40,745 bases of DNA from Coleofasciculaceae cyanobacterium SM2_1_6 (GTDB taxonomy: Bacteria; Cyanobacteriota; Cyanobacteriia; Cyanobacteriales; JAAUUE01), in the NCBI GenBank assembly GCA_012031635.1, contig JAAUUE010000002.1, positions 1 to 40,745 of the forward strand, given 5' to 3'. A model generated the notes under the pieces. The model worked only from the letters and a program-made list of their open reading frames with translations, did no database searches and was not told the DNA's origin. Made by a program: the position numbers and the translations under genes. This document shows, piece by piece, positions 8,647-40,745 of this stretch (its first letter is position 1; each line of letters opens with the position of its first letter).

Positions 8647-10698
8647 ATGACCAACAGCTTTCCCAATTTTCAGCCCCAAGGCTATCAGGTAATTCGTGAG
8701 TTGGGACACAATCACAATGGTGGACGGGTTACTTATCTGGCGATTAACCTAGAGGCAAACGCCCCTGCAATCCCTGAGCCAAACCAGAGTGCCTGCGCTG
8801 AGCGGAGCCGAAGCACCAGAATTGAACTGAGCCAAAGCGCCTGCGCTGAGCCAACCCAGAGCGCCTACGCTGAGCCAAACCAGAGCGCCTGCGCTGAGCG
8901 AAGCCGAAGCGTCGTCATTAAACATTTCCAACTCCACCAATCCTCTAGTTGGTCTGGCTACGGGGCGATCGATCGAGAAATTCAAGTCCTCCAAGGCTTG
9001 AACCATCCGGGCATTCCCCGCTATCTAGATTCCTTCCCCACCGAAACCGGGTTTTGCCTCGTCCAAGAGTACAAACAAGCCGAATCCCTTGCCCAAGCCC
9101 GGAGTTTTGCCCCAGAGGAAATTAAACAGATTGCCGTCGGCTTACTCGAAATTTTGGTCTATCTCCAGCAGCGCTTACCCTTTGTCAGTCATCGAGATAT
9201 TAAACCAGAGAATATCCTCGTAGATGGGGATTTACGGGTTTTTCTGGTGGATTTTGGGATTGCCAAAGTGGGACTAGGGGAAGCAACTACGGGCACTGTG
9301 GCTAAGGGAACTCTGGGGTTTATGGCTCCAGAGCAGTTATTTAATCGGGAAGTGACAGAAGCCTCGGATCTCTATGGTGTGGGGGCTACCCTGATTTGTT
9401 TGGTGACGGGGACAAAATCTAGTGAGATTACCGATTTAATTGATGACCATTACCAGCTAAATTTTCAGCATTTGGTTCCCCAGTTGAGCCTGCGTTGGTT
9501 GGAATGGCTAGAACGGATGGTGACGCTCCTGCCCAAGTATCGTTACCGTAACGCCGCCGAAGCTCTGGCTGCCTTGGAGCCGATCTATGTCACCAGAACC
9601 CCAGAGATTGTGTGCAGTGAGGATGTATTGGAATTTCGGGCCGAAAAACTGGGGCAGAAAATTACCCAGTATTTAACAATTCATAATTTCGTTCCCGAAA
9701 CTACCTTGCGGGGTTCCTTAGCGATCGCTCCCCATCACCACGATCGAGATAATTATTTAAATAATTTGCATGATTTAAATAATTTGCATGATTTAGATAA
9801 GCGTGATCCCAATTATGCTCCAGACTACGATCTTAAGCATGATCTTAACGATGCTCAATCCCGGTTTCCATCTCAGCATAGTTGGATTCGCCTGCCTTAT
9901 ACTGAGTTGAATGGGAATCGATCGATGGTCAAAATCACCGTAGATACCAGCAAGTTAATGGCGGCGGCTCTCTACGAGCGGGAGTTAGAAATCATGAGTA
10001 ATGCTAGTCCCGCAGTCCAAAGGGTAAAAATTCGGGTGAAAACAGCACCGATCCCCGTCCCCACCAAGAAATTACCCGCCCTGTCTTTATTTCTCCTCGT
10101 ATCCTTGGGGGTGATCGCTGCTTGGCTAGAGGCGATCGCTTGGGGAACAATCATTCAAAAGCACGGCAGTCTTGGCTTGGCAGTGGCGTTATTTATTACC
10201 ATGATTATTGCCTTGTTTGGAGGCATGATGGCGATCGCTGGGAATTTATTAACGAATTTTATTGGGAAGATTCGCCGCCAGTTGAAGATTTCCTACCAAC
10301 AAATTGATGAAATTTTAGTCTTTACCCTCGCCAGTGGGGCGGCATTTTCTGCGGCTCAGTTTGGTAGTTTTTTCCGGGAAGAAGCGGTGTCGATCGCTGC
10401 CCTCGCCATGGTAGATGCGGCAGTATTTATGACCATGTTTATTACGGGTAAAATTATTAAAATCAACCGCCAAAAAGGGTTTAATCAAATAATTTCTTTG
10501 GTGGTGACGCTCCTGTGTTTGGGCTTGGGGATCAGCATTGGTCTGGGGACAAAGTTGGGTTGGGGTAATCCTTGGGTGCTGGGAGCGATCGCCGCCACAA
10601 CTATTCCCCTCGCCGGAATTTTCTTCTACCCGCCCCTTGAGCGAAAGTACCGGATCGATCGCTACCGTCAAAGCGAACGCCATCTGATCTCTCCCTGA
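8647..10698 (+). CDS. Ser/Thr protein kinase with a C-terminal multi-TM domain
   Basis: The Hanks kinase motifs VVIKHF (catalytic Lys), HRDIKPENILV, DFGIAK and GTLGFMAPE are present. The C-terminal ~200 aa contain several hydrophobic helices. Confidence 0.85.
   Translation: MTNSFPNFQPQGYQVIRELGHNHNGGRVTYLAINLEANAPAIPEPNQSACAERSRSTRIELSQSACAEPTQSAYAEPNQSACAERSRSVVIKHFQLHQSSSWSGYGAIDREIQVLQGLNHPGIPRYLDSFPTETGFCLVQEYKQAESLAQARSFAPEEIKQIAVGLLEILVYLQQRLPFVSHRDIKPENILVDGDLRVFLVDFGIAKVGLGEATTGTVAKGTLGFMAPEQLFNREVTEASDLYGVGATLICLVTGTKSSEITDLIDDHYQLNFQHLVPQLSLRWLEWLERMVTLLPKYRYRNAAEALAALEPIYVTRTPEIVCSEDVLEFRAEKLGQKITQYLTIHNFVPETTLRGSLAIAPHHHDRDNYLNNLHDLNNLHDLDKRDPNYAPDYDLKHDLNDAQSRFPSQHSWIRLPYTELNGNRSMVKITVDTSKLMAAALYERELEIMSNASPAVQRVKIRVKTAPIPVPTKKLPALSLFLLVSLGVIAAWLEAIAWGTIIQKHGSLGLAVALFITMIIALFGGMMAIAGNLLTNFIGKIRRQLKISYQQIDEILVFTLASGAAFSAAQFGSFFREEAVSIAALAMVDAAVFMTMFITGKIIKINRQKGFNQIISLVVTLLCLGLGISIGLGTKLGWGNPWVLGAIAATTIPLAGIFFYPPLERKYRIDRYRQSERHLISP
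8774..8910. repeat. dispersed-repeat insertion (GAGCCAAACCAGAGCGCCTGCGCTGAGCG(G/A)AGCCGAAGC units) kept in frame inside the kinase N-lobe
   Basis: The near-identical units encode PNQSACAERSRS...SQSACAEPTQSAYAEPNQSACAERSRS. The GAGCGGAGCCGAA core recurs at 38345-38415 in non-coding DNA. Confidence 0.7.
9759..9794. repeat. 18-bp in-frame tandem duplication (NNLHDL x2) in the kinase linker
   Basis: AAATAATTTGCATGATTT occurs at 9759-9776 and again at 9777-9794. Confidence 0.9.
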
Positions 10699-14716: not shown

Positions 14717-14768
14717 ATCTGCAAATATTTTCCTCGATCGCCCACCAATTTCAGTCCACCTAATCTCA

Positions 14769-14910
14769 TTTTTAATTTTGTCCTTTTTAATTTTGCCTTT
14801 TTAATTTTTGCCTTTTTAATTTTGCCTTTTTAATTTTGTCCTTTTTAATTTTGCCTTTTTAATTTTGCCTTTTTAATTTTGCCTTTTAATTTTGCCTTTT
14901 TAATTTTGCC
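14769..14910. repeat. about 10 tandem copies of a 14-15-nt unit TTTTTAATTTTG(T)CC
   Basis: Read directly. It occupies most of the gap between the convergent lipid kinase and PAP2 genes and abuts the PAP2 stop codon (14911-14913). Confidence 0.9.
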
Positions 14911-15582
14911 TCAAATTCCGCCAATCTGCACCAGTCCATACAAACAAGCTGCCAGCCAGATGCCCCCAGCCACCCAGCCACTCAGGACATCTGTCGGCCA
15001 ATGCACACCAAAATACACCCGACTAAAGCCAACTCCCAAGGTTAAACCAGCTACCAAGGGAGCCGTAATTCCCAAGGGAACGCTCAAAGATTGGGTCAGG
15101 ATCGCCGCCAACAGACCGTAAAAGGAAATTGCACTCATGGAATGACCGCTAGGATAACTATAATCCATTGGTCGCTTAGAAGAGACCCATAGATCCGGTC
15201 GTTTGCGCCGAAAGAAAGACTTAAATATCCAATTCAGGAACCATGAACCGCCTAGCCCGATCGCTAAGACTAGGGCAGCTACTGTCTCCTTCTGGTAAAT
15301 CAAAACCCCACCGATCACAATCAGGATTGGGATAGTTATTTGCCCCTGGGCTAACCAAGTTAGAGCGGTCATGTATCGATCGAGGGTCGGATTAGTCCAT
15401 GACCTGAGAGTTAACAGACATGATTCTTCTACAGGCAATAACCAGTCCCAGAGAAGGACACGGGCAAGAAAAACCCCCATCGCTAGGACGATCGCCCCCG
15501 CCAGTAACCCCCCTAACAGATAGGGCATAAAAGCAATGAGGGATTGGAACAACCAATAAAGGCGAGTGCTAACCTGTGCCAT
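14911..15582 (-). CDS. PAP2-family lipid phosphate phosphatase
   Basis: The three PAP2 motifs are present: KSFFRRKRP, PSGH and SRVYFGVHWPTD. The protein is multi-TM. The ATG at 15582 has AGGAG 8 nt upstream, and a TTG at 15588 is an alternative start. Confidence 0.85.
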   Translation of the reverse strand: MAQVSTRLYWLFQSLIAFMPYLLGGLLAGAIVLAMGVFLARVLLWDWLLPVEESCLLTLRSWTNPTLDRYMTALTWLAQGQITIPILIVIGGVLIYQKETVAALVLAIGLGGSWFLNWIFKSFFRRKRPDLWVSSKRPMDYSYPSGHSMSAISFYGLLAAILTQSLSVPLGITAPLVAGLTLGVGFSRVYFGVHWPTDVLSGWVAGGIWLAACLYGLVQIGGI

Positions 15583-18730: not shown

Positions 18731-20425
18731 ATGCTGAGATTAGAGCATATTAGTAAGATTTATCCCACCGGGGAAGTATTGAAGGATGTCAACTGGGAAG
18801 TGAAACCGGGCGATCGCATTGGTTTAGTGGGGGTCAACGGAGCCGGAAAATCCACCCAGTTGAAGATTATCACCGGAGAAATGGAACCCACCACCGGAGA
18901 AGTTATTCGTCCCGCCAGCTTAAATATTGCCTACCTCAACCAAGAATTTGAAATCGATACTACCCGCACCGTCAAGGAAGAATTTTGGCGGGCTTTTGGG
19001 GAAGCTAACCAAGTTCATCAATCCCTCATGGAAGTGCATCGGCTGATGGAAACGGCGGATCCAGAGCAGTTGGATGAGCTGATTCACGAGATGGATCGCT
19101 GGCAGCGACAGTTTGAAGCACTTGATGGCTATAACTTAGAGGCGCAGATTGATAAACTGATGCCAGAGTTGGATTTTGAACAGGAAGACGGCGATCGCCT
19201 AGTTAGTTCCTTTAGTGGCGGTTGGCAGATGCGGATGAGTTTGGGCAAGATCATGCTCCAACGCCCGGATGTGTTGCTGTTGGATGAACCGACTAACCAT
19301 TTAGACCTAGAAACCATTGAATGGCTGGAAAATTATCTCCGGGGTTTAACTACACCGATGGTGATTGTCTCCCATGACCGGGAATTTCTCGATCGCCTCT
19401 GTACGCAAATTGTGGAAACCGAGCGGGGTGTGTCTAGTACCTACCTAGGGAATTATTCCAGCTATCTCGCCCAAAAAGCTGAAAGCCAAATGGCGCAACT
19501 CAGTGCCTACGAACGGCAACAGAAAGAAATTGAAAAGCAACAAACCTTTGTCGATCGCTTCCGAGCCAGTGCCACCCGCAGTACCCAAGCCAAGAGCCGG
19601 GAAAAACAACTAGATAAGATCGATCGAGTCGAGGCTCCCATTGGCAGTGTGCGGACGCTGCATTTCCGGTTTCCCCCCGCCCCCCGCAGTGGTTTAGAAG
19701 TGGTGCGGATTAAAGACCTTGCCCACACCTACGGCGATCGAATCCTCTTTTTGGGGGCAGATTTGTTGATTGAAAGGGGCGATCGGATTGCCTTCTTGGG
19801 ACCCAATGGAGCCGGAAAATCTACTCTTTTGCGTTTAATTATGGGCTTAGAAGCACCCAGCGATGGCAGTGTGGAGCTAGGTAAACACAATGTGATCCCC
19901 GGTTACTTTGAGCAGAACCAAGCGGAGGCGCTGGATTTGAGCAAGAAGGTAATTGACACGATCCACGATGAAGTTCCTGACTGGAAAGATGAGGAAGTCC
20001 GGGCTTTGTTAGGCAAATTCCTGTTTAGTGGGGATACTGCCTTTAAGTCGGTGAGCGCCTTGAGTGGGGGGGAGAAGGCAAGATTAGCTCTAGCGAAAAT
20101 GCTGCTCCGTCCGGCGAACTTATTGATCCTTGATGAGCCGACCAATCACCTCGACATTCCCGCCAAGGAAACCCTAGAGGAAGCCCTGCAAAACTATGAC
20201 GGCACAGCATTAATTGTGTCCCACGATCGCTACTTTATCTCTCAAGTAGCCAATAAAATTGTGGAAATTCGGGATGGGGAATTCCGGGTTTATCTAGGGG
20301 ATTATCATTATTATTTAGAAAAGATTGCTGAAGAGAAAGAGAATGCTAGATTAGCAGCGATCGAAGCAGAAAAAGCTGCCAAAGCCAAAGCAAAAAAAGC
20401 CAAAGCTACTGCCAAAAAGAGCTAA
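18731..20425 (+). CDS. ABC-F family ATPase (two ABC cassettes, Lys/Ala-rich tail)
   Basis: Walker A GVNGAGKST and GPNGAGKST, the signatures FSGGWQMR and LSGGEKAR, and an inter-domain linker are present. There are no TM segments. Confidence 0.9.
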   Translation: MLRLEHISKIYPTGEVLKDVNWEVKPGDRIGLVGVNGAGKSTQLKIITGEMEPTTGEVIRPASLNIAYLNQEFEIDTTRTVKEEFWRAFGEANQVHQSLMEVHRLMETADPEQLDELIHEMDRWQRQFEALDGYNLEAQIDKLMPELDFEQEDGDRLVSSFSGGWQMRMSLGKIMLQRPDVLLLDEPTNHLDLETIEWLENYLRGLTTPMVIVSHDREFLDRLCTQIVETERGVSSTYLGNYSSYLAQKAESQMAQLSAYERQQKEIEKQQTFVDRFRASATRSTQAKSREKQLDKIDRVEAPIGSVRTLHFRFPPAPRSGLEVVRIKDLAHTYGDRILFLGADLLIERGDRIAFLGPNGAGKSTLLRLIMGLEAPSDGSVELGKHNVIPGYFEQNQAEALDLSKKVIDTIHDEVPDWKDEEVRALLGKFLFSGDTAFKSVSALSGGEKARLALAKMLLRPANLLILDEPTNHLDIPAKETLEEALQNYDGTALIVSHDRYFISQVANKIVEIRDGEFRVYLGDYHYYLEKIAEEKENARLAAIEAEKAAKAKAKKAKATAKKS

Positions 20426-20601
20426 ATCTAAGTCTAGGATGAGGGCAAAACGGAAAAAAGCGGCTTGGGATATTGCTTATCTAAGTCATCTTCTGTCCCT
20501 TTGATTTTTATGCAGTTGCCCTGATATCAAAATGGCTGGCTAAGCTTAGAAATTAGTAAGATGCTATTATCAAAATCAGATAGTACTACCGAATACTTAC
20601 T

Positions 20602-20862
20602 ATGCCTCTTATCGAACTCCTACCAACCGTTAGTCAACTGACGCATCAAGATAAGCTCCGACTTATTCACTTCCTTTTGCTTGCAATTGCTAGAGAGGAA
20701 GGATGTAGCCTAGAAACTGCTCATAATCAACATTATGAAAATACCCTGATGAAGCAACTAGCGATTACTGAAGCTGTTGTATGGTCACCTCAAGCCGATC
20801 ATAAAGCGGTTCAAGCCTTGTCAGACCTTTTAGTTGCAGCACAGGGTGTATCGAATGCTTGA
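20602..20862 (+). CDS. small helical protein, first gene of protease module 1 (paralog of 23988..24209)
   Basis: It shares the N-terminal motif (L/P)xxQL(T/S)HxDKLxLxxFL with the ORF at 23988..24209. It overlaps the downstream protease gene by 8 nt (ATGCTTGA). Confidence 0.5.
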   Translation: MPLIELLPTVSQLTHQDKLRLIHFLLLAIAREEGCSLETAHNQHYENTLMKQLAITEAVVWSPQADHKAVQALSDLLVAAQGVSNA

Positions 20863-21274
20863 TGGTCATCGTTTTTCATTTACAGAAAAGACTGATAGTT
20901 CTGGTCGCTCTAGCATCTTGCCATACTTACCACTAACCTTGACTAATGGAAAACGTTCAATTGAGGTTATGGCTTTATTGGACACTGGTGCTAGTGTTAA
21001 TGTCTTACCCTACGAAATTGGGTTACAAATGGGAGCAGTCTGGGAAAATCAAACTGTTCAAGTTCCCTTAAGTGGAAACCTTGCTCATAGTGAGTCACGG
21101 GGACTCGTTTTGACCGGGAAAGTTGCACATTTCCCACCTGTTTTACTCGCCTTTGCATGGACTCAAGCAACAGATGTACCAGTAATTTTAGGTCACATGA
21201 ATTTTTTTGCGGAATTCAACGTGTGTTTTTATCGCCATGAGTTAGCTTTTGAGATTTGCCCACTCCAAACATAA
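20855..21274 (+). CDS. retropepsin-like (clan AA) aspartic protease
   Basis: LPYLPLTL.....IEVMALLDTGASVNVLP contains the catalytic D-T-G. The protein is small (~139 aa), as is typical of bacterial retropepsin-like proteins. I prefer the ATG at 20855. Confidence 0.7.
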   Translation: MLDGHRFSFTEKTDSSGRSSILPYLPLTLTNGKRSIEVMALLDTGASVNVLPYEIGLQMGAVWENQTVQVPLSGNLAHSESRGLVLTGKVAHFPPVLLAFAWTQATDVPVILGHMNFFAEFNVCFYRHELAFEICPLQT

Positions 21275-21353
21275 AGTGTTGCTAACCCACCCGCAGCATA
21301 ACTAGATCTTTAGTACGAAGTGATTAATCAAAAGCTTTCTATATAACATATCG

Positions 21354-21403
21354 TATAGGGCAGATAACCAGAAACTTGACATTCAGCCTATCTGCCCTAT
21401 AGT
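21354..21403 (+). promoter_or_regulatory. near-consensus sigma70-type promoter (TTGACA-16 nt-TATAGT) embedded in a 13-bp perfect inverted repeat
   Basis: TATAGGGCAGATA (21354-21366) pairs with TATCTGCCCTATA (21389-21401). TTGACA lies at 21376-21381 and TATAGT at 21398-21403. No ORF follows for about 350 nt. Confidence 0.4.
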
Positions 21404-21598
21404 CAGATTAGGCAGAAAAATTCCGTCTAATACATAGTTAGACTTTAGTCCCTAGTTTCCGATCGATTATCGGTCAAGGATCAGCATCAGCAAGCAGAGA
21501 CTTATTAGTTTAATCCATCAGTTTGGGTGAGTCGATTCGCTTTGCGATCCCTGCGGGAATCGAGCGATCGACCAAGTCAAGTTAGCGAGGGTTGGCTT

Positions 21599-21685
21599 GT
21601 CTAACACTTCATTGCAGCGGACGGTTGGGCGATCGTTTGTTGAGTGTTAAAATCTAATCACCGCCGCTGAACTTCACCGTTAGGC
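21599..21685 (+). other. 87-bp imperfect palindrome A with attC-like outer boxes (GTCTAAC ... GTTAGGC)
   Basis: GTCTAAC (21599-21605) fits RYYYAAC and GTTAGGC (21679-21685) fits GTTRRRY. The inner stem is CAGCGG-a-CGGT / ACCG-CCGCTG with a bulged A. The block between the outer box and the stem does not pair well. It shares TGCAGCGGA, CCGCTGA and ACCGTTAG with element B. Confidence 0.4.
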
Positions 21686-21762
21686 GGCTCAAGGTTATCT
21701 GTGGGGGCGCAGCCGAAAGACCATTAGTGTGACACTTCAATCACAATCAGAAATTGCCTGGT

Positions 21763-22838
21763 ATGGGACACGTTTTCAAGCCAAGTACAATACCGACTGT
21801 TGACGAGTACGTGTCGGGTTTATCTGCAATTCGTTCTCGTATCAGTGAGTCGCAGTTTCGTTTGCTGCAAGAGCAGTATTATGCTCCAAATCGTACTACT
21901 ACAGCGACCCAACTTGCAGAGTTAATAGGGATTGAGAGTGGGCGTGGAGCGATCAATCTGATGTATGGTTGGCTAGGGCGCTTATTCTGTGAAGCAACAG
22001 GGTTTGAGCCGAGTCAGCGAGAAGTTGGCACACATCGCTGGTGGTCTGTGTGGTCTAGCGGATATGAAGAGCGCAATCCCTATCGTTTTTTTGGAAGATG
22101 CACCCAGAAGTTGCTGAAGCTTTAGAACATTTAGGTTGGGTGAGTTCTAATTCGGCAATAAGTCGCTATCAGCAAATTTTTAGTGAATTAGTTTATGAGC
22201 GAGACGATCGTAGTCCTCCCGATGCCCGAAGGCAGGCACAATTTAAGATTGGTTGGGAAAACGCCGCCATGCAAAGGAGAACTTATACAAGTGAAACTTT
22301 AAATTCAGTTCTTACTTGGAATAATTTGGGCTATCGCTTTGGGCTGAAATTAGGACAGTGTTCTAATTCGGAAATTCAAGCAGCTTATGACTTTTTAGCT
22401 CAAGAATATCAAATCAATTCCTCTGGCTCAAAGCAGCTAAATATAACCAATATTTATCCTGATGAGGTGGCTTCAGAGGAGATTTTTCGAGAAGGGTCAG
22501 TACGTCAAGTTTCAGTTAATGCCTATGAGCGAGATCCTAAAGCACGCCAGAAGTGCATCGATTATTATGGCTTAAGTTGCTCAGTTTGCAGTTTTAATTT
22601 TGGTGAGTTCTTTGGAGAGTTAGGTGAAGGCTTTATCCATGTTCACCACTTACGCCCTATTTCAGAGATTGCCAAAGAGTATGAAGTTGACCCCGTAAAA
22701 GATTTACGCCCAGTTTGCCCAAATTGTCACGCTATGATTCATCGCCGTTCTCCACCACTGAGTATTGAGGAGCTTCAAGTTTTGGTGAGAAATTCTAAAG
22801 TTCAACCGCCTCCTAACAATTCGGGTGCAGCGGATTGA
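21763..22838 (+). pseudogene. HNH endonuclease (COG3183-like HNH at the C-terminus, unknown N-terminal domains), split by a 1-nt frameshift in a T7 run
   Basis: ORF 21754..22125 ends ...ERNPYRFF and ORF 22098..22838 begins MHPEVAEALEHLGW. An eighth T in the run at 22086-22092 would give YRFFWKMHPEVAEAL. The C-terminus reads NAYERDPKARQKCIDYYG.SCSVC.FNF....G..G.GFIHVHHL.P......EY.VDP..DLRPVCPNCHAMIH. Confidence 0.8.
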
Positions 22839-22897
22839 CCGAAGCCGCTTGGGGGAGATGCAAAGATCACGGCAACCGCTGACCCGAACCGTTAGAT
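22811..22897 (+). other. 87-bp imperfect palindrome B with attC-like architecture at the 3' end of the HNH gene
   Basis: The sequence is TCCTAAC aa TTCGGGT g CAGCGG a TTG a CCG [28-nt loop] CGG CAA CCGCTG ACCCGAA cc GTTAGAT. About 24 bp pair in five blocks. Three single-base bulges all lie on the 5' arm. A 2x2 unpaired spacer follows the outer boxes. The outer boxes match RYYYAAC at 6/7 and GTTRRRY at 7/7. Confidence 0.5.
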
Positions 22898-22982
22898 TGA
22901 TTAGAATGCTAGACGCTTTGGGAAAATTACGATGAGGACGATCGCCGATCTTGTAGGATACATTAATGAAATGTAATGCGCC
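22891..22982 (+). repeat. 92-bp island junction repeat, copy 1
   Basis: GTTAGATTGATTAGAATGCTAGACGCTTTGGGAAAATTACGATGAGGACGATCGCCGATCTTGTAGGATACATTAATGAAATGTAATGCGCC is about 89% identical to copy 2. Confidence 0.9.
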
Positions 22983-23075
22983 TTATCTTCATTATTAACA
23001 AAAGCAATCTATTCAGAGCGATTTCTGGTTAGCTATAATGTCGGATAAGGCAGTAATTAAGGAAAATTTACAATC

Positions 23076-23348
23076 ATGGCAGTTCGTCAACCCCGCTATA
23101 GTAAAGAAGAATTTGCCCGAAGAGGCGATCTCATTTATCAAACGCAAATACGCCCACAAGTTGAGGCAGGTAATCATGGCAAAATTGTAGCGATCGACAT
23201 TGAGACTGGAGACTTTGAAATTGATGCTCATGAAATCACTGCCTGCGATCGGCTCGAAGCCCGTCATCCAGATGCTCAAGTCTGGATTGTTCGAGTCGGT
23301 TCTCACCATGTTCGCCGATTTGGTGGACGCACAAAGAGAGCAGTATGA
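23076..23348 (+). CDS. small hypothetical protein, first gene of protease module 2
   Basis: A 90-aa ORF with a TATAAT box at 23035-23040 upstream. It overlaps the downstream protease ORF by ATGA. I recall this type of partner next to clan AA proteases in cyanobacteria. Confidence 0.55.
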   Translation: MAVRQPRYSKEEFARRGDLIYQTQIRPQVEAGNHGKIVAIDIETGDFEIDAHEITACDRLEARHPDAQVWIVRVGSHHVRRFGGRTKRAV

Positions 23349-23722
23349 TCACAGGAATTGTTAATGCCGATTTTGAGGCGATTATCTCGCTTTCGATATG
23401 CGGCTCTGATGGAAAAATTCACGCATAAGATGCGGTTGTTGATACAGGCTTTAACGGTTGGCTTTCATTGCCTCCAGACCTAATTGATCATTTGCATCTC
23501 AAATGGAAAAGACGGGGACGCGCTATTCTTGGAGATGGTAGCGAATGCGTTTTTAATATCTATGAAGGCGTTGTAATGTGGGATGGAGATTATCTGACTA
23601 TCCCCATTGATGAAGCTGATTCGGAACCTCTTGTGGGAATGTCATTGATGGAAGGCTATCAACTCACAGTTCAAGTATTTGAAGCAGGTATCGTAGAAAT
23701 CCGAAAAGTAAGCGCTGTCTAA
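23345..23722 (+). pseudogene. clan AA aspartic protease (DTGF type) with an in-frame TAA at 23426-23428
   Basis: The translation reads MITGIVNADFEAIISLSICGSDGKIHA*DAVVDTGFNGWLSLPPDLIDHLHLKWKRRGRAILGDGSECVFNIYEGVVMWDG.... The stop lies just before the catalytic DTG, and the frame continues into ORF 23468..23722. Confidence 0.7.
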
Positions 23723-23729
23723 CTAGATC

Positions 23730-23821
23730 GTGAGATTGATTAGAATGCTAGACGCTTTGGAAAAATTACGATAAGGACGATCGCCGATCTTGTAGGCTGT
23801 ATTAATGAAATACAACGCACC
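23730..23821 (+). repeat. 92-bp island junction repeat, copy 2
   Basis: GTGAGATTGATTAGAATGCTAGACGCTTTGGAAAAATTACGATAAGGACGATCGCCGATCTTGTAGGCTGTATTAATGAAATACAACGCACC is preceded by GTCTAAC-TAGATC (23717-23729). Confidence 0.9.
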
Positions 23822-23839
23822 TCTTTTTTTCCAGCTAAA

Positions 23840-23995
23840 CTATAAAACATTCACACTAGAGCCAGTGTCCAAAAGTCCTGAAACACTCAGGGATTGATTT
23901 TGATACATTAATGTCAATGGTAAATAAGGAAGCGTACTTAATGCTCCAAGACTGGGATTTACCTCAGTGAAAGCAAATCTTACTTTATTAGCCAT
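23840..23995 (-). pseudogene. 3'-truncated retropepsin-like protease (51 codons), second gene of protease module 3
   Basis: The minus-strand translation MANKVRFAFTEVNPSLGALSTLPYLPLTLMYQNQSLSVSGLLDTGSSVNVL* parallels the first third of the 20855..21274 product. It stops about 18 nt from the end of repeat copy 2. Its start overlaps the upstream gene by ATGGCTAA. Confidence 0.6.
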
Positions 23996-24209
23996 GAGTC
24001 AATTCTTGCTTCTCTTTTAATGCTTGAGCAAGAATGGCGGCAGCCTCAAAAGAGTCATGTAAACCTTGTCTAGGCAGGTCATCTTGGATAGATAGGGGTA
24101 CAATACCAGAATCTTTGAGCAACTCCGCTACAAGAAAGTTAAGTAATAAAAGTTTATCAGAGTGAGACAATTGCCTAAGCAGGGGAACAAATTCAGTAGT
24201 TGTCAGCAT
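23988..24209 (-). CDS. small helical protein, first gene of protease module 3 (paralog of 20602..20862)
   Basis: MLTTTEFVPLLRQLSHSDKLLLLNFLVAELL aligns with MPLIELLPTVSQLTHQDKLRLIHFLLLAIA. Confidence 0.55.
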   Translation of the reverse strand: MLTTTEFVPLLRQLSHSDKLLLLNFLVAELLKDSGIVPLSIQDDLPRQGLHDSFEAAAILAQALKEKQELTHG

Positions 24210-24309
24210 AGATTTTAAGAAAACTATAGATTTTGATCTCTTTTACTCCGCCCCAGTATAACACTACCTTCGTGCTAACCCTTATCCATGAAAGCCGTCT
24301 AACTAGACC

Positions 24310-24355
24310 GTTAGATTGATTAAAATACTAGACGCTTTGGAAAATATGGTTAGCA
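24310..24355 (+). repeat. island junction repeat, copy 3 (5' 46 bp only)
   Basis: GTTAGATTGATTAAAATACTAGACGCTTTGGAAAAT is preceded by GTCTAAC-TAGACC (24297-24309) and then diverges. Confidence 0.8.
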
Positions 24356-24359
24356 TCTA

Positions 24360-24380
24360 TTGATCCCATTTTGGGATCAA
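24360..24380. promoter_or_regulatory. perfect 9-bp inverted repeat (TTGATCCCA ttt TGGGATCAA) next to a TATTAT box, a candidate higBA operator/promoter
   Basis: Read directly. It lies 17 nt upstream of the higB ATG, with TATTAT at 24383-24388. Type II TA operons are typically autoregulated at palindromic operators. Confidence 0.4.
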
Positions 24381-24396
24381 GCTATTATTTAGGCGT

Positions 24397-24690
24397 ATGC
24401 GTATCTTGTCCCGTAGCACCCTACGAAATTTCTGGGAGACTCATCCAGATGCCGAAGAAGCACTGAAGACTTGGTACTACGAAGCGTCTCATGCTAATTG
24501 GCAGAGTCCAGTTGATGTTAAGGCTGCTCATAGTAGTGCCAGTATCGTTGCGAACAACCGTGTGGTTTTCAATATCAAAGGCAACACCTATCGGTTAATT
24601 GTGGCAATTCGTTATGACATTGGTATTATTTTTATTCGATTTATTGGCACTCATGCTGAGTATGACAAAGTAGATGCAGAAATAATATGA
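24397..24690 (+). CDS. higB: type II toxin HigB (mRNA interferase, HigB_toxin family)
   Basis: MRILSRSTLRNFWETHPDAEEALKTWYYEA..ANW.SP.DVKA...SASIV.NNRVVFNIKGN.YRLIV.I.Y......IRFIGTHAEYDKVDAE closely matches the family consensus as I remember it. Confidence 0.9.
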   Translation: MRILSRSTLRNFWETHPDAEEALKTWYYEASHANWQSPVDVKAAHSSASIVANNRVVFNIKGNTYRLIVAIRYDIGIIFIRFIGTHAEYDKVDAEII

Positions 24691-24704
24691 ATGGAGGCTA
24701 ATGT

Positions 24705-25082
24705 ATGGAGATACGTCCAATTAGAACACACACCGATTACCAGCAAGCTCTTCAAGAGATTGAGCTATTGTTTGATGTAGCCCCAAGTACACCCGAACAA
24801 GATCGACTAGATATTCTCAGTACTCTGGTAGAAGCTTATGAAAAGAAACACTTTCCAATTGAGTTACCTGATCCGATCGAAGCAATTCATTACTACATGG
24901 ACACCCGTGGGTGGTCTCGACGTGATTTGGAGCCATGTCTAGGCAGTCGAGCCAGAGTATCTGAGGTTCTATCTCGTAAACGTTCATTGACCTTAGAGAT
25001 GATTCGGAAACTGCATCAAGAGTTGGGAGTTCCTGCTGAGATTCTCATTCAGCCTTATGAGTCGGCACAAATCCCTGCCTAA
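24705..25082 (+). CDS. higA: HigA-type HTH antitoxin
   Basis: IRT..DYQQAL.EIE.L.D..P.TPE.DRLD.L.TLVEAYE.KH.PI..PDPIEAI...M...G.SR.DLEP.LGSRARVSEVLSRKR.LTLEMIRKLH..LG.PAE.L is the canonical partner of HigB. Confidence 0.9.
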   Translation: MEIRPIRTHTDYQQALQEIELLFDVAPSTPEQDRLDILSTLVEAYEKKHFPIELPDPIEAIHYYMDTRGWSRRDLEPCLGSRARVSEVLSRKRSLTLEMIRKLHQELGVPAEILIQPYESAQIPA

Positions 25083-25085
25083 TCA

Positions 25086-25172
25086 TTCTGATGAGAATAC
25101 TAGACGCTTTGGAAAATTATGAGGAGGACGATCGCCGATCTTGTAGAGTATGTTAATGAACTGTAACGCGCC
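25086..25172 (+). repeat. island junction repeat, copy 4
   Basis: TTCTGATGAGAATACTAGACGCTTTGGAAAATTATGAGGAGGACGATCGCCGATCTTGTAGAGTATGTTAATGAACTGTAACGCGCC starts 4 nt after the higA stop. Confidence 0.85.
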
Positions 25173-25191
25173 TCATGTCTATTTATGTAAT

Positions 25192-25851
25192 TTAATTGTT
25201 GAGCTGTTCTCTGACCCATTGGCGGACATGGCGCATTAAACTTTTTTCGCCCACAGTTTGACTAAGTTCCAAAAATGACCTCAGCACAACAGCATCAAAC
25301 CTTGGCAACACCATGGAAACTTCCCTGGGTTGATATCCTTGGTCTCCTAAACTCCAAATCGTTAAGCTATCACGATCGCACTGCCATACCTCCATCACTC
25401 CCAAAGCCGCATAGATTCCTAGCCGATTCATAGAACTACTAGTGTGATCAACCTCGATCGCTAAATCGGGAGGCGGATCAATAGTTAGATCGATTACATC
25501 CTTACCACGCACTGCTAACTCGTTTTGAATGTAATAGCACTCATCCGCTTCTAAACCCTTGCGTAGGTCTTCTCGTGTCCAAGTTGTTGAACCTAAACTA
25601 CAAATTTCAATCCCTAATTCTTCTGTCATCACTTCCACAAAACGACCAAGTAGTTTTTTATAGCGTTCGTGGGGGGGTAGTAGCCTGAGAATCTCCAAAA
25701 TTCCGTCATCATAAGTTAATCGCATTCCCGGTTGCGATGCCAAATCCTGTACCAAATTCTGATAAGTACCCCATTGAATCCCGGAAAGAATAGTTGTATT
25801 GATGGGAAATGGTTGTGCCAAATTCGAGTTAGAGGCGATCGCAGCAACCAT
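25192..25851 (-). CDS. Uma2-family (DUF820) endonuclease
   Basis: W..Y..L.......R..Y.DG.LEI....P.HE........EV...ELG.......STT........G.E.D.CYY........PPDLAIEV..TSSS..RL.IYA.LGV.E.W shows the PD-(D/E)XK-like Uma2 pattern. Confidence 0.85.
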   Translation of the reverse strand: MVAAIASNSNLAQPFPINTTILSGIQWGTYQNLVQDLASQPGMRLTYDDGILEILRLLPPHERYKKLLGRFVEVMTEELGIEICSLGSTTWTREDLRKGLEADECYYIQNELAVRGKDVIDLTIDPPPDLAIEVDHTSSSMNRLGIYAALGVMEVWQCDRDSLTIWSLGDQGYQPREVSMVLPRFDAVVLRSFLELSQTVGEKSLMRHVRQWVREQLNN

Positions 25852-26001
25852 AGTTTTCTCCTTGATCTAGAGATTTTTGTTTTTTGAGCTATGCACTTAA
25901 TCTTAATTTGATTTTGAACCAGAGAGGATCGATCGCTACTCTAGGCTTAAGGATTTCTAGTTGTAAATTATGGTTTAAAATCCGACGATAATTATCAATA
26001 A

Positions 26002-26184
26002 AACGTCAGTTCAGGGTAAGAAATACCCCTCATCCCCAACCCCACTTCGACAAGCTCAGTGCATCGCTTCGCCCATAAGGGGCGTTAGGCATAAGACTTC
26101 CCGAAGGGTAGGGGAGTAAGACGAAATTTTCTTGTTCCCTCTCCCAGAACGGGGGAGGGTTCCAGTTTATCCCAAACTCACGTT
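26002..26184. mobile_element. MITE-like long imperfect palindrome (outer arms AACGTCAGTTCAGGGTAAGAAA / TTTATCCCAAACTCACGTT; C-rich/G-rich inner arms)
   Basis: The outer arms are approximately reverse-complementary. The inner CCCCTCATCCCCAACCCC ... GGGGAGTAAGA ... CCCTCTCCC..GGGGGAGGG blocks are shared with the element at 34797-34934. There is no coding capacity. Confidence 0.5.
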
Positions 26185-26273
26185 AATAAAATAGACTTCT
26201 TGCCTGAATCCATTTTTGGTATGATTTTCTAATAGTTTGATATACATAATTTACTATTCACGCAGGAGGTCTA

Positions 26274-27041
26274 ATGATTCTTGATCATCCAGTTGTCAAT
26301 AGAAATATATTCTTCCCCAGATCGACTACCATTGAGCCGAGTTTCTTTGTGGAAGTAGAAGATGCTAACATTGCTTGCTATCTACAGCAGCCTTTTCCTG
26401 ATGCTGGAACTATTTTATACTTTCACGGGAATGGGGAACTTGCCTCGGAATATGCAACAGATTATGCCGATTTGTTTCTAGAAAGGGGGGTTAATGTCTG
26501 CTTTGTTGAGTATCGGGGTTATGGGATGTCAACGGGTGTACCTACTTTGATCAATATGCTGGGTGATGGAGAAAAAGTTTTCCAAAAATTGGGGATTGCC
26601 CCCGAAAAGTTGGTGGTTTTTGGTCGATCGCTGGGCAGCTTGTATGCGATCGAGCTAGTTCACCGCATCCCCCAGATTGCCGGACTAGTGCTAGAAAGTG
26701 CCATTGCTAATTTACGGGAGAGTTTACCAATTATTGATGAGATCGAGGAGCTAAAGCCCTCAGAGATGGAACTTATGGCGGAGATTGATACCTATTTTAA
26801 TCTACAACAAAAACTCCAAAGCTATACTGGGCATCTGCTGGTATTACACGCCGAACACGATCGAGCCTTAAACCGTTCCCACGCCGATCGATTGCATACT
26901 TGGGCTGGCAGTCCTCACAAGAAATTGGTGATATTTCCCCAAGGCAACCACAATTCAATCTTATACGCAAATTTTCCGAGTTATTTACAAGAACTAGCCG
27001 AATTTTTGCAGCAAGTAGGAGTTCGATCGTCTATTCCATAG
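26274..27041 (+). CDS. alpha/beta-fold hydrolase
   Basis: The nucleophile elbow GRSLGS, the oxyanion-hole region HGNG and the C-terminal GNHN are present. The RBS GGAGG lies before the ATG. Confidence 0.75.
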   Translation: MILDHPVVNRNIFFPRSTTIEPSFFVEVEDANIACYLQQPFPDAGTILYFHGNGELASEYATDYADLFLERGVNVCFVEYRGYGMSTGVPTLINMLGDGEKVFQKLGIAPEKLVVFGRSLGSLYAIELVHRIPQIAGLVLESAIANLRESLPIIDEIEELKPSEMELMAEIDTYFNLQQKLQSYTGHLLVLHAEHDRALNRSHADRLHTWAGSPHKKLVIFPQGNHNSILYANFPSYLQELAEFLQQVGVRSSIP

Positions 27042-37852: not shown

Positions 37853-38329
37853 ATGAATTTTCAGCGTGAAACACCAGAGACAAATTCAGATACTCAGAAA
37901 GAAGCAAAAATGTTTCTTTTTCTACCCCCAACGTTTGACCAGAAACCTTTGGAAATATTGTACGGAACCGAAGGGTTTTTACGGCGGAAAATTGTGAAAA
38001 TAATTCATCCTTTTTTGTCTACAGAAGTAGCTGATGATTTTCAAGATACCTCTTGGTTAGCAGAAGAATCGCTGCAAGAGTTGGCAACAATTAATGTGGA
38101 AGAAATCAGCGATCGAGAACTCCAATCCTCCAGAATTCTGATTGGCTTAACTTTCGTGGGCATCAGTGCTTTATTAGTTAGTTTCCTCCTGCTCTACCTC
38201 AGCACCACCCATTCTGAGCTATCTCTCCAGCAACAAATTAGTTCCCATTGGTATCAATACATCTTTTCAGTTTGTCTAGGAGTAACAGGGATGTTACTCT
38301 TGGGTCGAGAAGCGATGCGTTTTCAGTGA
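37853..38329 (+). CDS. hypothetical membrane protein (two C-terminal TM helices)
   Basis: A 158-aa ORF with hydrophobic segments ILIGLTFVGISALLVSFLLLYL and YIFSVCLGVTGMLLLG. I recognise no domain, and the start is uncertain. Confidence 0.4.
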   Translation: MNFQRETPETNSDTQKEAKMFLFLPPTFDQKPLEILYGTEGFLRRKIVKIIHPFLSTEVADDFQDTSWLAEESLQELATINVEEISDRELQSSRILIGLTFVGISALLVSFLLLYLSTTHSELSLQQQISSHWYQYIFSVCLGVTGMLLLGREAMRFQ

Positions 38330-38425
38330 ACAGTTACTCGTACTGAGCGGAGTCGAAGTATCAGTGAACAGTGAACAGTTATCAATTACTTGTATTGAGC
38401 GGAGCCGAAATATCAATGATCACAG
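38326..38425. repeat. two tandem, diverged copies of a ~45-bp dispersed repeat (CAGTGAACAGTTA..T(C/T)GTA(C/T)TGAGCGGAG(T/C)CGAA(G/A)TATCA), with a CAGTGAA heptamer duplication
   Basis: Read directly. The GAGCGGAGCCGAA core is the same as in the kinase insertion at 8774-8910. Confidence 0.6.
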
Positions 38426-38432
38426 TAAATCT

Positions 38433-38885
38433 ATGGAAAGTAGTTTGTATGAGGCGGATTTTTATAGATGGACGATCGAGCAATCCCAGTTTTTACAGTT
38501 GGGGAAGTTTGATGCTTTAGATTTGGAAAACCTAGCAGAGGAGATCGCATCTTTGGGGAAGCAACAACGGCAGGAACTTAGAAACCGATTGGGAGTATTG
38601 ATTGGGCATTTACTAAAGTGGCAGTATCAACCAACCAGAAAGACTCGCAGTTGGCAGTTAACTATTGAATTACAAAGATCGGAAATTGAAGAACTATTGA
38701 TGGATAACCCTAGTTTAAAACCCTATTTAGTTGAGGTAATTCCCAAAGCCTTTAAGTTGGGATTATCTCTAGTATTTATGGAAACTCCCTTAAAAAAACG
38801 AGATATTCCTTCTAATTGTCCTTATACTTTAGAGCAAATTTTAGATGAGAATTTTCCTGATGATATTGATAGAGACTTTGATTAA
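38433..38885 (+). CDS. DUF29 protein, array copy 1 (subtype A)
   Basis: LYEADFYRWTIEQSQFLQLGKFD.LDLENLAEEIASLGKQQRQELRNRLGVLIGHLLKWQYQP fits DUF29. The ATG at 38433 gives the 150-aa size shared by the paralogs; the ORF-track start at 38364 would read through the repeat. Confidence 0.8.
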   Translation: MESSLYEADFYRWTIEQSQFLQLGKFDALDLENLAEEIASLGKQQRQELRNRLGVLIGHLLKWQYQPTRKTRSWQLTIELQRSEIEELLMDNPSLKPYLVEVIPKAFKLGLSLVFMETPLKKRDIPSNCPYTLEQILDENFPDDIDRDFD

Positions 38886-38911
38886 TCTAGTATTAACATA
38901 GAGTGTGAATT

Positions 38912-39364
38912 ATGACATCAAAACTATATGAAATAGATTTTCATGGGTGGACGATCGAGCAATCCCAGTTATTAGAATTGGGGAAGTTTGATGGGTTAGA
39001 TTTAAGCAACTTAGCTGAGGAGATCGCATCTTTGGGCAGACAGCAGCGACAAGAATTAGAGAACCGTTTGGCTATTTTATTGGGGCATTTTCTCAAGTGG
39101 ACTTTACAGCCAGAGCTACGAGGTAAAAGCTGGAAGTTGACAATTAAGGAGCAACGCAGACAAATTCAAAGATTGATCAAAGGCAATCCTAGCTTAAAGC
39201 CCTATTTATCAGAAGCAATTATTGAAGGTTATGCCTCAGCTTTAATTTTAGTTGCTCAAGAAACTCCTTTTAATTACCAAGATTTACCTCAAGAATGCTC
39301 TTTTAAGATTGATCAGATTTTTGATGAGAAGTTCCCTGACGGTATAGAAATAGAACCTTACTAA
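38912..39364 (+). CDS. DUF29 protein, array copy 2 (subtype B)
   Basis: LYEIDFHGWTIEQSQLLELGKFDGLDLSNLAEEIASLGRQQRQELENRLAILLGHFLKW..QPELRGKSW. Confidence 0.85.
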   Translation: MTSKLYEIDFHGWTIEQSQLLELGKFDGLDLSNLAEEIASLGRQQRQELENRLAILLGHFLKWTLQPELRGKSWKLTIKEQRRQIQRLIKGNPSLKPYLSEAIIEGYASALILVAQETPFNYQDLPQECSFKIDQIFDEKFPDGIEIEPY

Positions 39365-39399
39365 AACTTGAATAAGCCCTGAATAAAAAGTTATAAATT

Positions 39400-39852
39400 A
39401 TGACATCACAACTATACGAAACCGATTTTTATAGATGGACGATCGAGCAATCTCAGTTTTTACAATTGGGCAAGTTTGATAGGTTAGATTTAAGCAACTT
39501 AGCAGAGGAGATCGCATCTTTGGGGAAGCAACAACGGCAGGAACTTAGAAATCGATTAGGTGTATTGATTGGGCATTTACTGAAATGGCAATATCAGCCA
39601 GCAAAAAGAACCCGGAGTTGGCAGGTAACTATTAGTTTGCAACGGCGAGAAATTAGAGACATCTTAGCTGAAAATCCTAGTTTACAACCTTATTTAGATA
39701 CAGCGATTCAAGCAGGTTTTTCCCTAGGTATAGATTTAGTCTTAATAGAAACTCCCATTAAGAAAAAAGATTTACCTACAGAATGTATTTATACGGTGGA
39801 GCAAATTCTTGATAGTAATTTTCCTGATGGGATTGAAACAGAGTTTGATTAA
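39400..39852 (+). CDS. DUF29 protein, array copy 3 (subtype A)
   Basis: The N-terminal ~65 codons are nearly identical to copy 1 at the nucleotide level, while the C-terminal half has diverged. Confidence 0.85.
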   Translation: MTSQLYETDFYRWTIEQSQFLQLGKFDRLDLSNLAEEIASLGKQQRQELRNRLGVLIGHLLKWQYQPAKRTRSWQVTISLQRREIRDILAENPSLQPYLDTAIQAGFSLGIDLVLIETPIKKKDLPTECIYTVEQILDSNFPDGIETEFD

Positions 39853-39883
39853 GTTGATTAGGTTGATTAGATTGGGTTGAATT

Positions 39884-40333
39884 ATGGTATCAAAATTATA
39901 CGAAACCGATTTTTATAGATGGACGATCGAGCAGTCCCAGTTTTTACAATTGGGCAAATTTGATGATTTAGATTTAGAAAACCTAGCAGAGGAGATCGCA
40001 TCTTTGGGCAGACAAGAAAAGCAAGAATTAAGAAATCGATTAGGTATCTTAATTGGGCATCTACTTAAATGGCAGTATCAGCCCGAAAAGCGGAGTAAAA
40101 GTTGGCGAGTAACGATTAAAGAACAACGGCGAGAAATTCGGTTAATTATCGATGATAATCCTAGCCTGAAGCCCTACCTTGAAGAAGCAATTTTCCGGGG
40201 CTATGCCCAAGGGTTAGATTTAGTAGTGAAGGAAACGCCCCTAGATTATCGAGATTTACCTAAAGATTGTCCCCTTAGCGTAGAGCAGATTTTTGATCCT
40301 AACTTTCCGCCGGGACTAGAAACAGAATTTTAG
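39884..40333 (+). CDS. DUF29 protein, array copy 4 (subtype A)
   Basis: LYETDFYRWTIEQSQFLQLGKFDDLDLENLAEEIASLGRQEKQELRNRLGILIGHLLKWQYQPEKRSKSW. Confidence 0.85.
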   Translation: MVSKLYETDFYRWTIEQSQFLQLGKFDDLDLENLAEEIASLGRQEKQELRNRLGILIGHLLKWQYQPEKRSKSWRVTIKEQRREIRLIIDDNPSLKPYLEEAIFRGYAQGLDLVVKETPLDYRDLPKDCPLSVEQIFDPNFPPGLETEF

Positions 40334-40356
40334 AAATTCAGTAGGAGGGAAAAAGT

Positions 40357-40745
40357 ATGGATTTAAAATTATACGAAGCAGATTTTTATGGGTGGACGAT
40401 CGAGCAATCTCAGTTATTAGAATTAGGTAAATTTGATCAGTTAGATTTAAGCAACTTAGCGGAGGAGATCGCATCCTTGGGGAGTCAACAAAGAAATGAA
40501 TTGGAAAATCGCTTAGCTATTTTATTAGGGCATTTATTGAAATGGAATTATCAACCAGAATTACGGGGTAAAAGTTGGCGATCGACTATCCGTGAACAAC
40601 GGCGACAAATTCAAAGATTGATTACTAAAAATCCTAGTCTTAAGCCCTACCTGGCAGAGGCAATTACCGAAGGTTACGAATCAGCTTTAGATTTAGCAGT
40701 CCGGGAAACGCCCTTAGATTACCCAGATTTACCTCCTAGTTGTCC
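40357..40745 (+). CDS. DUF29 protein, array copy 5 (subtype B), 3'-partial at the window edge
   Basis: The ATG at 40357 follows GGAGGG. The translation is MDLKLYEADFYGWTIEQSQLLELGKFDQLDLSNLAEEIASLGSQQRNELENRLAILLGHLLKWNYQPELRGKSW..., and the frame stays open to the end of the window. Confidence 0.8.
   Translation, partial: MDLKLYEADFYGWTIEQSQLLELGKFDQLDLSNLAEEIASLGSQQRNELENRLAILLGHLLKWNYQPELRGKSWRSTIREQRRQIQRLITKNPSLKPYLAEAITEGYESALDLAVRETPLDYPDLPPSC

Follow-up and report, generated by a model that had tools for sequence, protein, structure and literature searches.

Very probable integron attC sites on either side of an HNH endonuclease gene in a degenerate, integrase-less cassette array of a cyanobacterium

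Introduction

Do two similar palindromes on either side of an HNH endonuclease gene in a cyanobacterial chromosome mark it as an integron gene cassette? The question is raised by a 40,745-nucleotide stretch of DNA from Coleofasciculaceae cyanobacterium SM2_1_6 (contig JAAUUE010000002.1; the whole stretch is called the window here), in which a first reading of the letters alone had picked out two 87-bp imperfect palindromes, A (21599-21685) and B (22811-22897), and had proposed that they resemble attC sites and bracket the HNH gene like an integron gene cassette. We refer to this proposal as the original prediction. Here we report that A and B are very probably integron attC recombination sites, with 21680-22891 as a gene cassette whose cargo is an HNH endonuclease gene (McrA or type IV restriction-like), and that the locus is a degenerate cassette array without an integrase.

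In integrons, it is the bottom strand of the attC site (here the - strand of the window) that folds into a hairpin, and the integron integrase, IntI, recognises the R box, the spacer, the L box, and the extrahelical bases of this hairpin. IntI cuts between the A and the C of the bottom-strand AAC, which on the top strand corresponds to G|TT. A circular cassette is excised when two attC sites recombine, and one is inserted when attC recombines with attI.

Integrons and clusters of attC sites that have no integron integrase (CALINs) have been reported in Cyanobacteria (Cury et al. 2016, PMC4889954), a taxon-specific covariance model for cyanobacterial attC sites has been published (Ghaly et al. 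2021, PMC8352920), and integron cassettes encoding anti-phage defence have been described (bioRxiv 10.1101/2024.07.02.601719). The present locus adds one further case to this known class of element and leaves knowledge of how integrons work unchanged. What the bare-sequence reading did was to recognise integron sites outside their usual proteobacterial setting.

Results and Discussion

Structure of the two sites

Element B, on the + strand, folds just as it had been described. An outer CTAAC/GTTAG box pair is followed by a 2x2 unpaired spacer, 7 bp, a bulged (extrahelical) G, the 6 bp of CAGCGG/CCGCTG, a bulged A, 3 bp, a further bulged A, 3 bp, and a 28-nt loop, and the full outer boxes read TCCTAAC (R'') and G|TTAGAT (R'). 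Element A, also on the + strand, likewise has the features ascribed to it, with GTCTAAC as R'' and G|TTAGGC as R', a 9x9 block that does not pair in the position of the spacer, and the L'' box TGCAGCGGa and L' box CCGCTGA on either side of a variable loop, the stem reading CAGCGG-a-CGGT. The claim that these boxes fit the integron R'' and R' consensus stands for A and for most of B, the part that does not stand being the first base of the B R'' box, which is not a purine. The pattern CAGCGG-N20-50-CCGCTG matches the window at A and B only, where 0.02 matches are expected. When B is folded as single-stranded DNA, the + strand reaches -20.6 kcal/mol (z = -4.1) and the - strand -21.1 kcal/mol (z = -4.8), and 0 of 200 shuffled sequences reached the folding energy of B.

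A wider family of sites

From four copies of the palindrome, found in the window and in a metagenome contig (L001), we derived the pattern TGCAGCGG-N25-55-CCGCTGA-N6-CCGTTAG and used it to scan one genome per species. At least 120 genome stretches matched, as compared with about 2 expected by chance by our own estimate. The matches listed are mostly cyanobacterial and also come from Acidobacteriota, Planctomycetota, Chloroflexota, Gemmatimonadota, Armatimonadota, and Proteobacteria. We aligned 126 distinct sites, leaving out those of the window and L001. Most pattern matches have RYYTAAC about 15 nt upstream even though it lay outside the search pattern, and pairs of the CTAAC type are present in 95-120 of the 126 sites. 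The L box itself (TGCAGCGG/CCGCTGA) was fixed by the search pattern and its conservation is not an independent result, just as the range of loop lengths in the family, 25-55 nt, was set by the pattern.

The alignment has the signature of a conserved helix. In it, 88% of the cells pair, versus 23-41% when the 3' partners are slid, and the covariation score is 0.325 versus at most 0.095 for the slid versions. The six pairs flanking the L box show 32-75 double-sided changes each, and the bulged G and bulged A of the 5' arm are kept in every one of the 126 sites. In many cyanobacterial sites the spacer segment has helix-like covariation, and in those of planctomycetes and proteobacteria it is unpaired. 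As a separate observation, the sequence after many R' boxes (GTTAG-RC-NGCT) is also conserved and pairs with bases before R''.

These 126 sites, among which A, B, and L001 are not included, served to build a covariance model, R1. Its + strand scores are 82.1 bits for B (E = 5e-22) and 61.7 bits for A (E = 5.5e-16), versus - strand scores of 22.5 bits for B and 7.9 bits for A; in the rest of the 40.7-kb window R1 finds no match above 16 bits. A and B are thus highly significant members of the family under a model made from other genomes, as the original prediction required of them, and the same model recovers classical attC sites. We scanned class 1 integron DNA of 6 kb and 14 kb with R1. The sole significant match in the R100 integron is attC_aadA1 (30.6 bits), and attC_aadA1 and attC_dfrA1 (23.7 bits) are the sole two significant matches in the dfrA1-aadA1 integron. 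These matches lie on the cassette strand and at the exact cassette boundaries, and the two extrahelical bases of attC_aadA1, C and A, take the alignment positions of the family's bulged G and A.

The two classical sites, which belong to class 1 mobile integrons (Tn21/R100 and pSE08-00436-1), have the same architecture and strand polarity as the A/B family, and B starts CTAACAATTCG and finishes CGTTAGAT, as the aadA1 site does. They differ in their L-box sequences and loops, and the first extrahelical base on the top strand is G in B, G in attC_dfrA1, and C in attC_aadA1. The window has neither the intI1 and attI1 nor the resistance genes that accompany mobile-integron sites. The aadA 59-base element matches 1,962 plasmids at 99% identity or more (100% among the matches listed).

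In other loci, R1 finds co-oriented arrays of sites with a spacing of 0.3-1.5 kb. In proteobacterial loci from metagenome-assembled genomes, these comprise about 14 sites (L060), 12 (L062), and 10 (L038), with reverse-strand echoes excluded, and in cyanobacterial loci there are 6 (L089), 5 each (L090, L047, and L026), or 4 each (L017 and L048). Sites lie at the 3' end of an open reading frame (ORF) on the same strand (-30 to +40 nt) in 60 cases out of 117, versus 19 out of 117 when the opposite strand is taken. The original prediction had named an abundance of A/B-type palindromes in ordinary intergenic DNA as grounds for giving it up, and no such scatter is seen. Two are present in the window, and elsewhere they occur as arrays at ORF 3' ends, in four loci beside intI.

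These integrase genes were found by tblastn with IntI1 from plasmid R100. Full-length IntI1 homologues of 49-54% identity are encoded in L014 (Nodosilinea), L017 (Microcystis), L034 (Leptolyngbya JSC-1), and L118, and in all four loci intI adjoins the sites and is transcribed divergently from the array. The L118 integrase scores 469.7 bits on NCBIfam TIGR02249 (integron integrase), for which the cut-off is 265.

Junctions of the HNH cassette in other genomes

Cutting at G|TT in both palindromes was said to define a 1,212-bp unit, and this is correct, with the cut points at 21679|21680 and 22891|22892. The closest HNH homologue lies in the metagenome contig L001, where it sits between the same two palindromes and has other outer neighbours, including a DarT gene downstream. 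The window and L001 are 92% identical over 21664-22897, a span bounded by the L' box of A and the R' box of B, and the loop and 5' flank of the upstream palindrome of L001, A', are unrelated to those of A. Another HNH gene, 78% identical, is present in L002, and there the homology with the window starts at 21679, the G of GTTAGGC. There is no attC to the left of this junction in L002. The sequence instead reads ...GCGGAAAGCATCCGTATAATCCATAG|TTGGGC, which is homologous to window positions 21402-21443, and the cassette abuts this attI-like ...CCATAG|TTGGGC exactly at G|TT. To judge from its sequence, the L002 structure is the one expected from insertion of the HNH cassette by attI x attC recombination.

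Comparative evidence of mobility at the predicted junctions, for which the original prediction had called, comes from the HNH unit, which is in a new context in L001 and is joined to an attI-like site at G|TT in L002. B itself is 95% identical to attC sites of L042, L084, and L128, which diverge from it straight after GTTAG, and units headed by a repeat of about 95 nt (R, described below) start at G|TT three times. Comparison of these genomes supports an IntI-mediated crossover at the G|TT of R'.

Weighing the evidence

Several observations weigh against reading A and B as integron sites. There is no intI gene or remnant of one in the 40.7-kb window by tblastn with IntI1 and cyanobacterial IntI, the best match having E = 3. 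The single-strand folding energy, named as a check in the original prediction, sets B apart from all its shuffled versions and leaves A indistinguishable from them (z = -0.2 and -1.15 for A); the significance of A stems from sequence plus structure and not from stability. The spacer of B is a mere 2x2 unpaired bases followed by 7 pairs, versus the unpaired spacer of about 5 nt in a textbook attC, and the first extrahelical base of B is C on the bottom strand and not G. Loop sequence is common to cyanobacterial sites across genera (e.g., AGCCGCTTGGGTGAGATGCAAAGGTATCGGCAACC), which is unusual for a terminal structure that is termed variable. Finally, the attC that follows the HNH gene in L001 (B', 1666-1738) is a hybrid, with a 5' arm and loop of the B type and a 3' arm (CCGCTGAACTTTGCCGTTAG) like that of the upstream site A' (452-523). 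IntI cleavage at G|TT alone does not explain this hybrid, and gene conversion or template switching between neighbouring sites may lie behind it.

Could the elements act mainly as RNA, as 3'-untranslated-region stabilisers, terminators, or small RNAs made with the upstream gene, with the resemblance to attC secondary? The strongly strand-specific conservation, the position at the 3' ends of co-oriented ORFs, the conserved loops of the cyanobacterial copies, and a covariation that fits an RNA helix would all agree with this. We nevertheless regard it as improbable, because the outer boxes that never vary are those that IntI recognises, the sites occur in arrays and in linkage with integron integrases, and homology between genomes breaks at G|TT, which an RNA element would not cause. 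R1 also retrieves attC sites that were defined experimentally as DNA sites, and the elements have no match in Rfam even at E up to 5. Our Rfam searches, of the whole window at the gathering threshold and of 20400-26300 at E up to 5, gave two tRNAs and one chance match only. No T-run follows B, which speaks against the RNA reading and led us to reject an intrinsic terminator as well.

It is very improbable that A and B are generic repetitive extragenic palindromes (REP, miniature inverted-repeat transposable element-like, or chance cyanobacterial repeats) that flank the HNH gene by accident. Short repeats are indeed abundant in cyanobacterial genomes, and the window is rich in palindromes of the GCGATCGC type and has other repeat families nearby. 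Yet there are only two A/B copies in 40.7 kb, both of them flank one gene, they flank that gene as a pair again in L001, where the context is unrelated, and the family is found in several phyla, clustered in co-oriented arrays beside intI. Two similar hairpins in direct orientation at the ends of a 1.2-kb unit also bring to mind the subterminal hairpins of a single-strand transposon of the IS200/IS605 type or like a palindrome-associated transposable element (PATE), with the HNH gene as passenger, since single-strand transposition uses such hairpins. This we consider extremely improbable. Genes for TnpA and TnpB are lacking; in L001 the loop and 5' flank of the upstream hairpin are not those of A, so that the hairpin is not carried along with the unit; in L002 no hairpin precedes the unit, which has the attI-like junction instead; and the hairpins match attC architecture and the classical attC sites. 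We also rejected homing of the HNH gene into a repeat, as the boundaries are at G|TT and the cassette also joins an attI-like site.

The HNH gene cassette

With A and B as attC sites, the HNH gene cassette is the 1,212 bp of 21680-22891 (+ strand), which consists of an 83-nt conserved leader, the HNH endonuclease gene (21763-22838, + strand), and an end in B. A is the attC of the preceding, ORF-less cassette and lies outside the HNH cassette. The statement that the unit holds only the HNH ORF is right in that there is one HNH gene and wrong in that this gene is split between two frames, 21754-22125 and 22098-22838. The frameshift comes from the loss of one base from the T7 run at 22086-22092. 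With one T put back, the gene encodes a 358-aa protein with a Pfam HNH match and a McrA or type IV restriction-like C-terminal domain, and this protein shares 93% identity, along 100% of its length, with a metagenomic homologue of 358 aa (P0001). The gene could be a pseudogene here, or the missing base could be a homopolymer sequencing error. Against PADLOC, the HNH protein gives a weak match to mREase_IV (E = 4.5e-4).

The stop codon of the HNH gene falls within the 5' arm of B. Because distant homologues stop about 10 residues earlier, before the PPPNNSGAAD tail, we conclude that this tail, the last 10 codons of the gene, is read-through into the 5' arm of B. Among 80 metagenomic loci with HNH homologues, 9 have a co-oriented attC match in the locus, mostly directly after the gene.

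The attI-like site and its promoter

A strong promoter of the sigma-70 type, TTGACA-16 nt-TATAGT (21376-21403, + strand), points toward the cassette array. It agrees with the consensus at 11 of 12 positions and is the best match in 20400-26300. The adjoining sequence, GTCAGATTAGGCAGAAAAATTCC-GTCTAAT-ACATA-G|TTAGAC (21402-21443, + strand), with a predicted crossover at 21437|21438, reads GTCAGATTAGGCAGAAAAATTCCGTCTAATACATAG|TTAGAC at its end, and for its TCTAAY-N4-8-GTTAGA pattern 0.07 matches are expected. We read 21402-21443 as an attI-like site because the left flank of the HNH cassette in L002 is homologous to it, a near-identical sequence lies beside intI in L118, and diverged counterparts adjoin intI in L014 and L034. 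The last 22 nt share 21 of 22 positions with the L118 sequence. This counterpart is the terminus of a series of palindromic repeats and lies 68 bp from the start (2448) of the longest ORF of intI and about 215 bp from the start of the IntI1-homologous region.

The attI-like motif also heads arrays in 10 other loci, and promoter and attI-like site have been kept together in L113 and L058. This platform of promoter plus attI-like site consists of palindromic repeats ending in ...TAATACATAG|TTAG, with matches in L118 (2400-2540), L113, L058, L116, L032, L085, L109, L114, L028, and L002. Its box sequences vary by lineage and the palindromy is retained. The platform adjoins intI in L118 and L128, and at 10 of the 12 attI-like sites recovered there is no intI within 2.3-21 kb upstream.

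Between the attI-like G|TT and the G|TT of A lies a segment of 242 bp (21438-21679, + strand) that ends in attC A and has no ORF of 45 aa or more. Its boundaries suggest that it is an ORF-less cassette.

Presumed collapsed sites and the R repeat

Three further places in the window have R'' and R' boxes only, separated by six bases, and match YAACTAGAYCKTKAG (YAAC-TAGAYC-KTKAG), for which 0 matches are expected in the window. These mini-sites, all on the + strand, are GCATAAC-TAGATC-TTTAGTA (21296-21315), GTCTAAC-TAGATC-GTGAGAT (23717-23736), and GTCTAAC-TAGACC-GTTAGAT (24297-24316). The one at 21296-21315 lies about 25 nt past the stop of the PDC-M52B gene described below, where homologous units elsewhere have a full attC, and the one at 23717-23736 stands where a full attC closes the homologous two-gene cassettes of five other genomes. 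R1 gives 24294-24318 an end-to-end alignment in which 69 internal positions of the model are deleted (15.4 bits, E = 0.029). From their sequence, the mini-sites appear to be attC sites that collapsed through loss of the inner ~70 nt, which comprise L'', the loop, and L'. The exact YAACTAGAYCKTKAG motif is absent from 810 kb of other attC-bearing loci and therefore arose locally and is not a feature of the family.

A repeat of about 95 nt, R (TTAGATTGATTAGAATGCTAGACGCTTTGGAAAA...GACGATCGCCGATCTTGTAGG...TTAATGAAAT...), is present at 22892-22990, 23731-23830, 24311-24345 (partial), and 25083-25180. Behind attC B and behind two of the collapsed sites, its start coincides exactly with G|TT. R has a TAGAAT element that is conserved and a small hairpin in which compensatory changes occur, and the hairpin part is also found near attC in Microcystis (L066, 1524-1561; L017, 4547-4594). 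R may be a cassette leader or promoter. A reading of R as an RNA gene finds no support, its folding as RNA being not significant on either strand (z from -1.6 to +1.7).

Arrangement, cargo, and decay of the array

The window is core cyanobacterial chromosome, in which Pfam identifies SecA, ProC, PurB, and an ABC-F protein among the larger ORFs and no recombinase. Between the housekeeping genes, in the interval from the end of the ABC-F gene (20425) to the start of a hydrolase gene (26274), is an islet at 20.6-25.9 kb, and the cassette array occupies about 20.6-25.2 kb of it. One cassette-like unit precedes the attI-like site and its outward promoter. This leftmost unit (20602-21274, + strand) is a candidate defence or toxin–antitoxin pair that encodes a protein of 86 aa and a retropepsin-like protein of 146 aa. 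PADLOC assigns them to PDC-M52A (E = 4e-45) and PDC-M52B (E = 7e-81), and the 146-aa protein also has a weak Pfam match to Asp_protease_2. A PDC-M52-like pair directly follows the HNH homologue in L002, L008, and L142; it is followed by a single attC in L008 and L142, and no attC was detected after the pair of L002.

To the right of the HNH cassette, the next cassette (22892-23730, + strand) consists of an R repeat (repeat family D4/D5), a 90-aa gene (23076-23348), and a retropepsin-like gene (23345-23722) that on direct reading has an in-frame TAA at 23426-23428, and it ends in the collapsed site at 23717-23736. The same pair of a 90-aa and a retropepsin-like gene forms a cassette that ends in a full attC in L116, L047, L104, L045, and L026. 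Beside the R repeat that comes after it is the remnant of a second PDC-M52-like pair on the - strand (23840-24209). By BLASTP, it matches the 86-aa protein with E = 3e-7 and the 146-aa protein with 57% identity and E = 5e-16, and its protease gene is truncated to 51 aa. This unit is closed by the collapsed site at 24297-24316. The array continues with a HigB/HigA toxin–antitoxin pair (24397-25082, + strand; Pfam HigB_toxin, E = 3e-33, and HTH_3), and the right edge of the islet is formed by a putative endonuclease of the Uma2 family (25192-25851, - strand; Pfam Uma2, E = 2e-16; PADLOC PDC-S17, E = 2.5e-43).

The islet bears several signs of decay, namely the HNH frameshift, an in-frame stop in one cargo gene, the truncation of another, and the three collapsed attC sites. 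A and B share the + strand, at a distance of 1.2 kb. The promoter and attI-like site (21376-21443) are in place, and as the window lacks an integrase gene, the locus counts under the definition of Cury et al. as a CALIN, a degenerate and integrase-less cassette array, and not as a complete integron. Presumably the array once had its own integrase, and A and B may still be recombinable by IntI supplied in trans.

Relation to known integrons and proposed course of events

The A/B family shares much with the attC sites of sedentary chromosomal integrons (59-base elements; the cyanobacterial type of PMC8352920). Both have RYYYAAC and GTTRRRY boxes, an imperfect L''/L' inverted repeat, a variable loop, and two extrahelical bases on the R''-L'' arm in the positions they have in attC_aadA1. 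Both are placed at the 3' end of a co-oriented ORF and in co-oriented arrays with cassette boundaries at G|TT, and relatives of A and B share the linkage to a TIGR02249 integrase. They depart from the textbook attC in that the "unpaired central spacer" is mostly paired in B and in many cyanobacterial members (2x2, then 6-7 bp) and in that parts of the loop are unusually conserved across genera. Like the CALINs of PMC4889954, the window has two intact attC sites 1.2 kb apart on the same strand, no intI gene or pseudogene nearby, and cargo other than resistance genes. It differs from them in keeping an attI-like site and an outward promoter ahead of the cassettes and in having three collapsed attC sites, which would go uncounted under a standard attC model.

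The cargo resembles that of the defence cassettes described previously (bioRxiv 10.1101/2024.07.02.601719) in its PDC-M52 and PDC-S17 candidate families, its HNH domain of the type IV restriction-like kind, and its toxin–antitoxin pairs; it differs in that the genes of the window are only putative defence genes and several are pseudogenes. It extends the known cyanobacterial cassette cargo to an HNH (type IV restriction-like) gene and to units of the PDC-M52 and HigBA types, and it is in line with recent thinking, in which integrons store defence and addiction modules.

In the course of events that we propose, the - strand of attC would fold, IntI would bind it and cut at G|TT, and the cassette would be excised or would be inserted at attI. 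The HNH cassette would in this way have come to lie in a small chromosomal array with an attI-like head, an outward promoter, and toxin–antitoxin and candidate anti-phage cargo, and the array would then have decayed. The locus provides a concrete pair of attI-like and attC sites that can be tested with a cyanobacterial integrase.

A bolder proposal, which we think unlikely, is that cyanobacteria have an "orphan platform" of promoter and attI-like site that commonly heads integrase-less arrays, with a distant IntI acting in trans or the platform itself mobile, and that the 20-bp R''-TAGAYC-R' form is a functional, double-stranded simple site. Such a form could lock cassettes in place or could provide a new insertion point. 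If the proposal is true, the orphan platform and the double-stranded simple site are features that have not been described for integrons.

Other repeats in the window

Three other repeats were noted outside the islet. At least five tandem paralogous ORFs of about 150-173 aa occupy 37853-40745, where a 300-nt repeat family recurs with a spacing of about 480 nt and 67-79% identity. An intergenic AT-rich tandem repeat of 14-15 nt (TTTTTAATTTTGCC), with about 10 units, lies at 14754-14912. A 24-nt repeat (CTGAGCCAAACCAGAGCGCCTGCG) lies at 8774-8923, inside a 683-aa ORF at 8647-10698.

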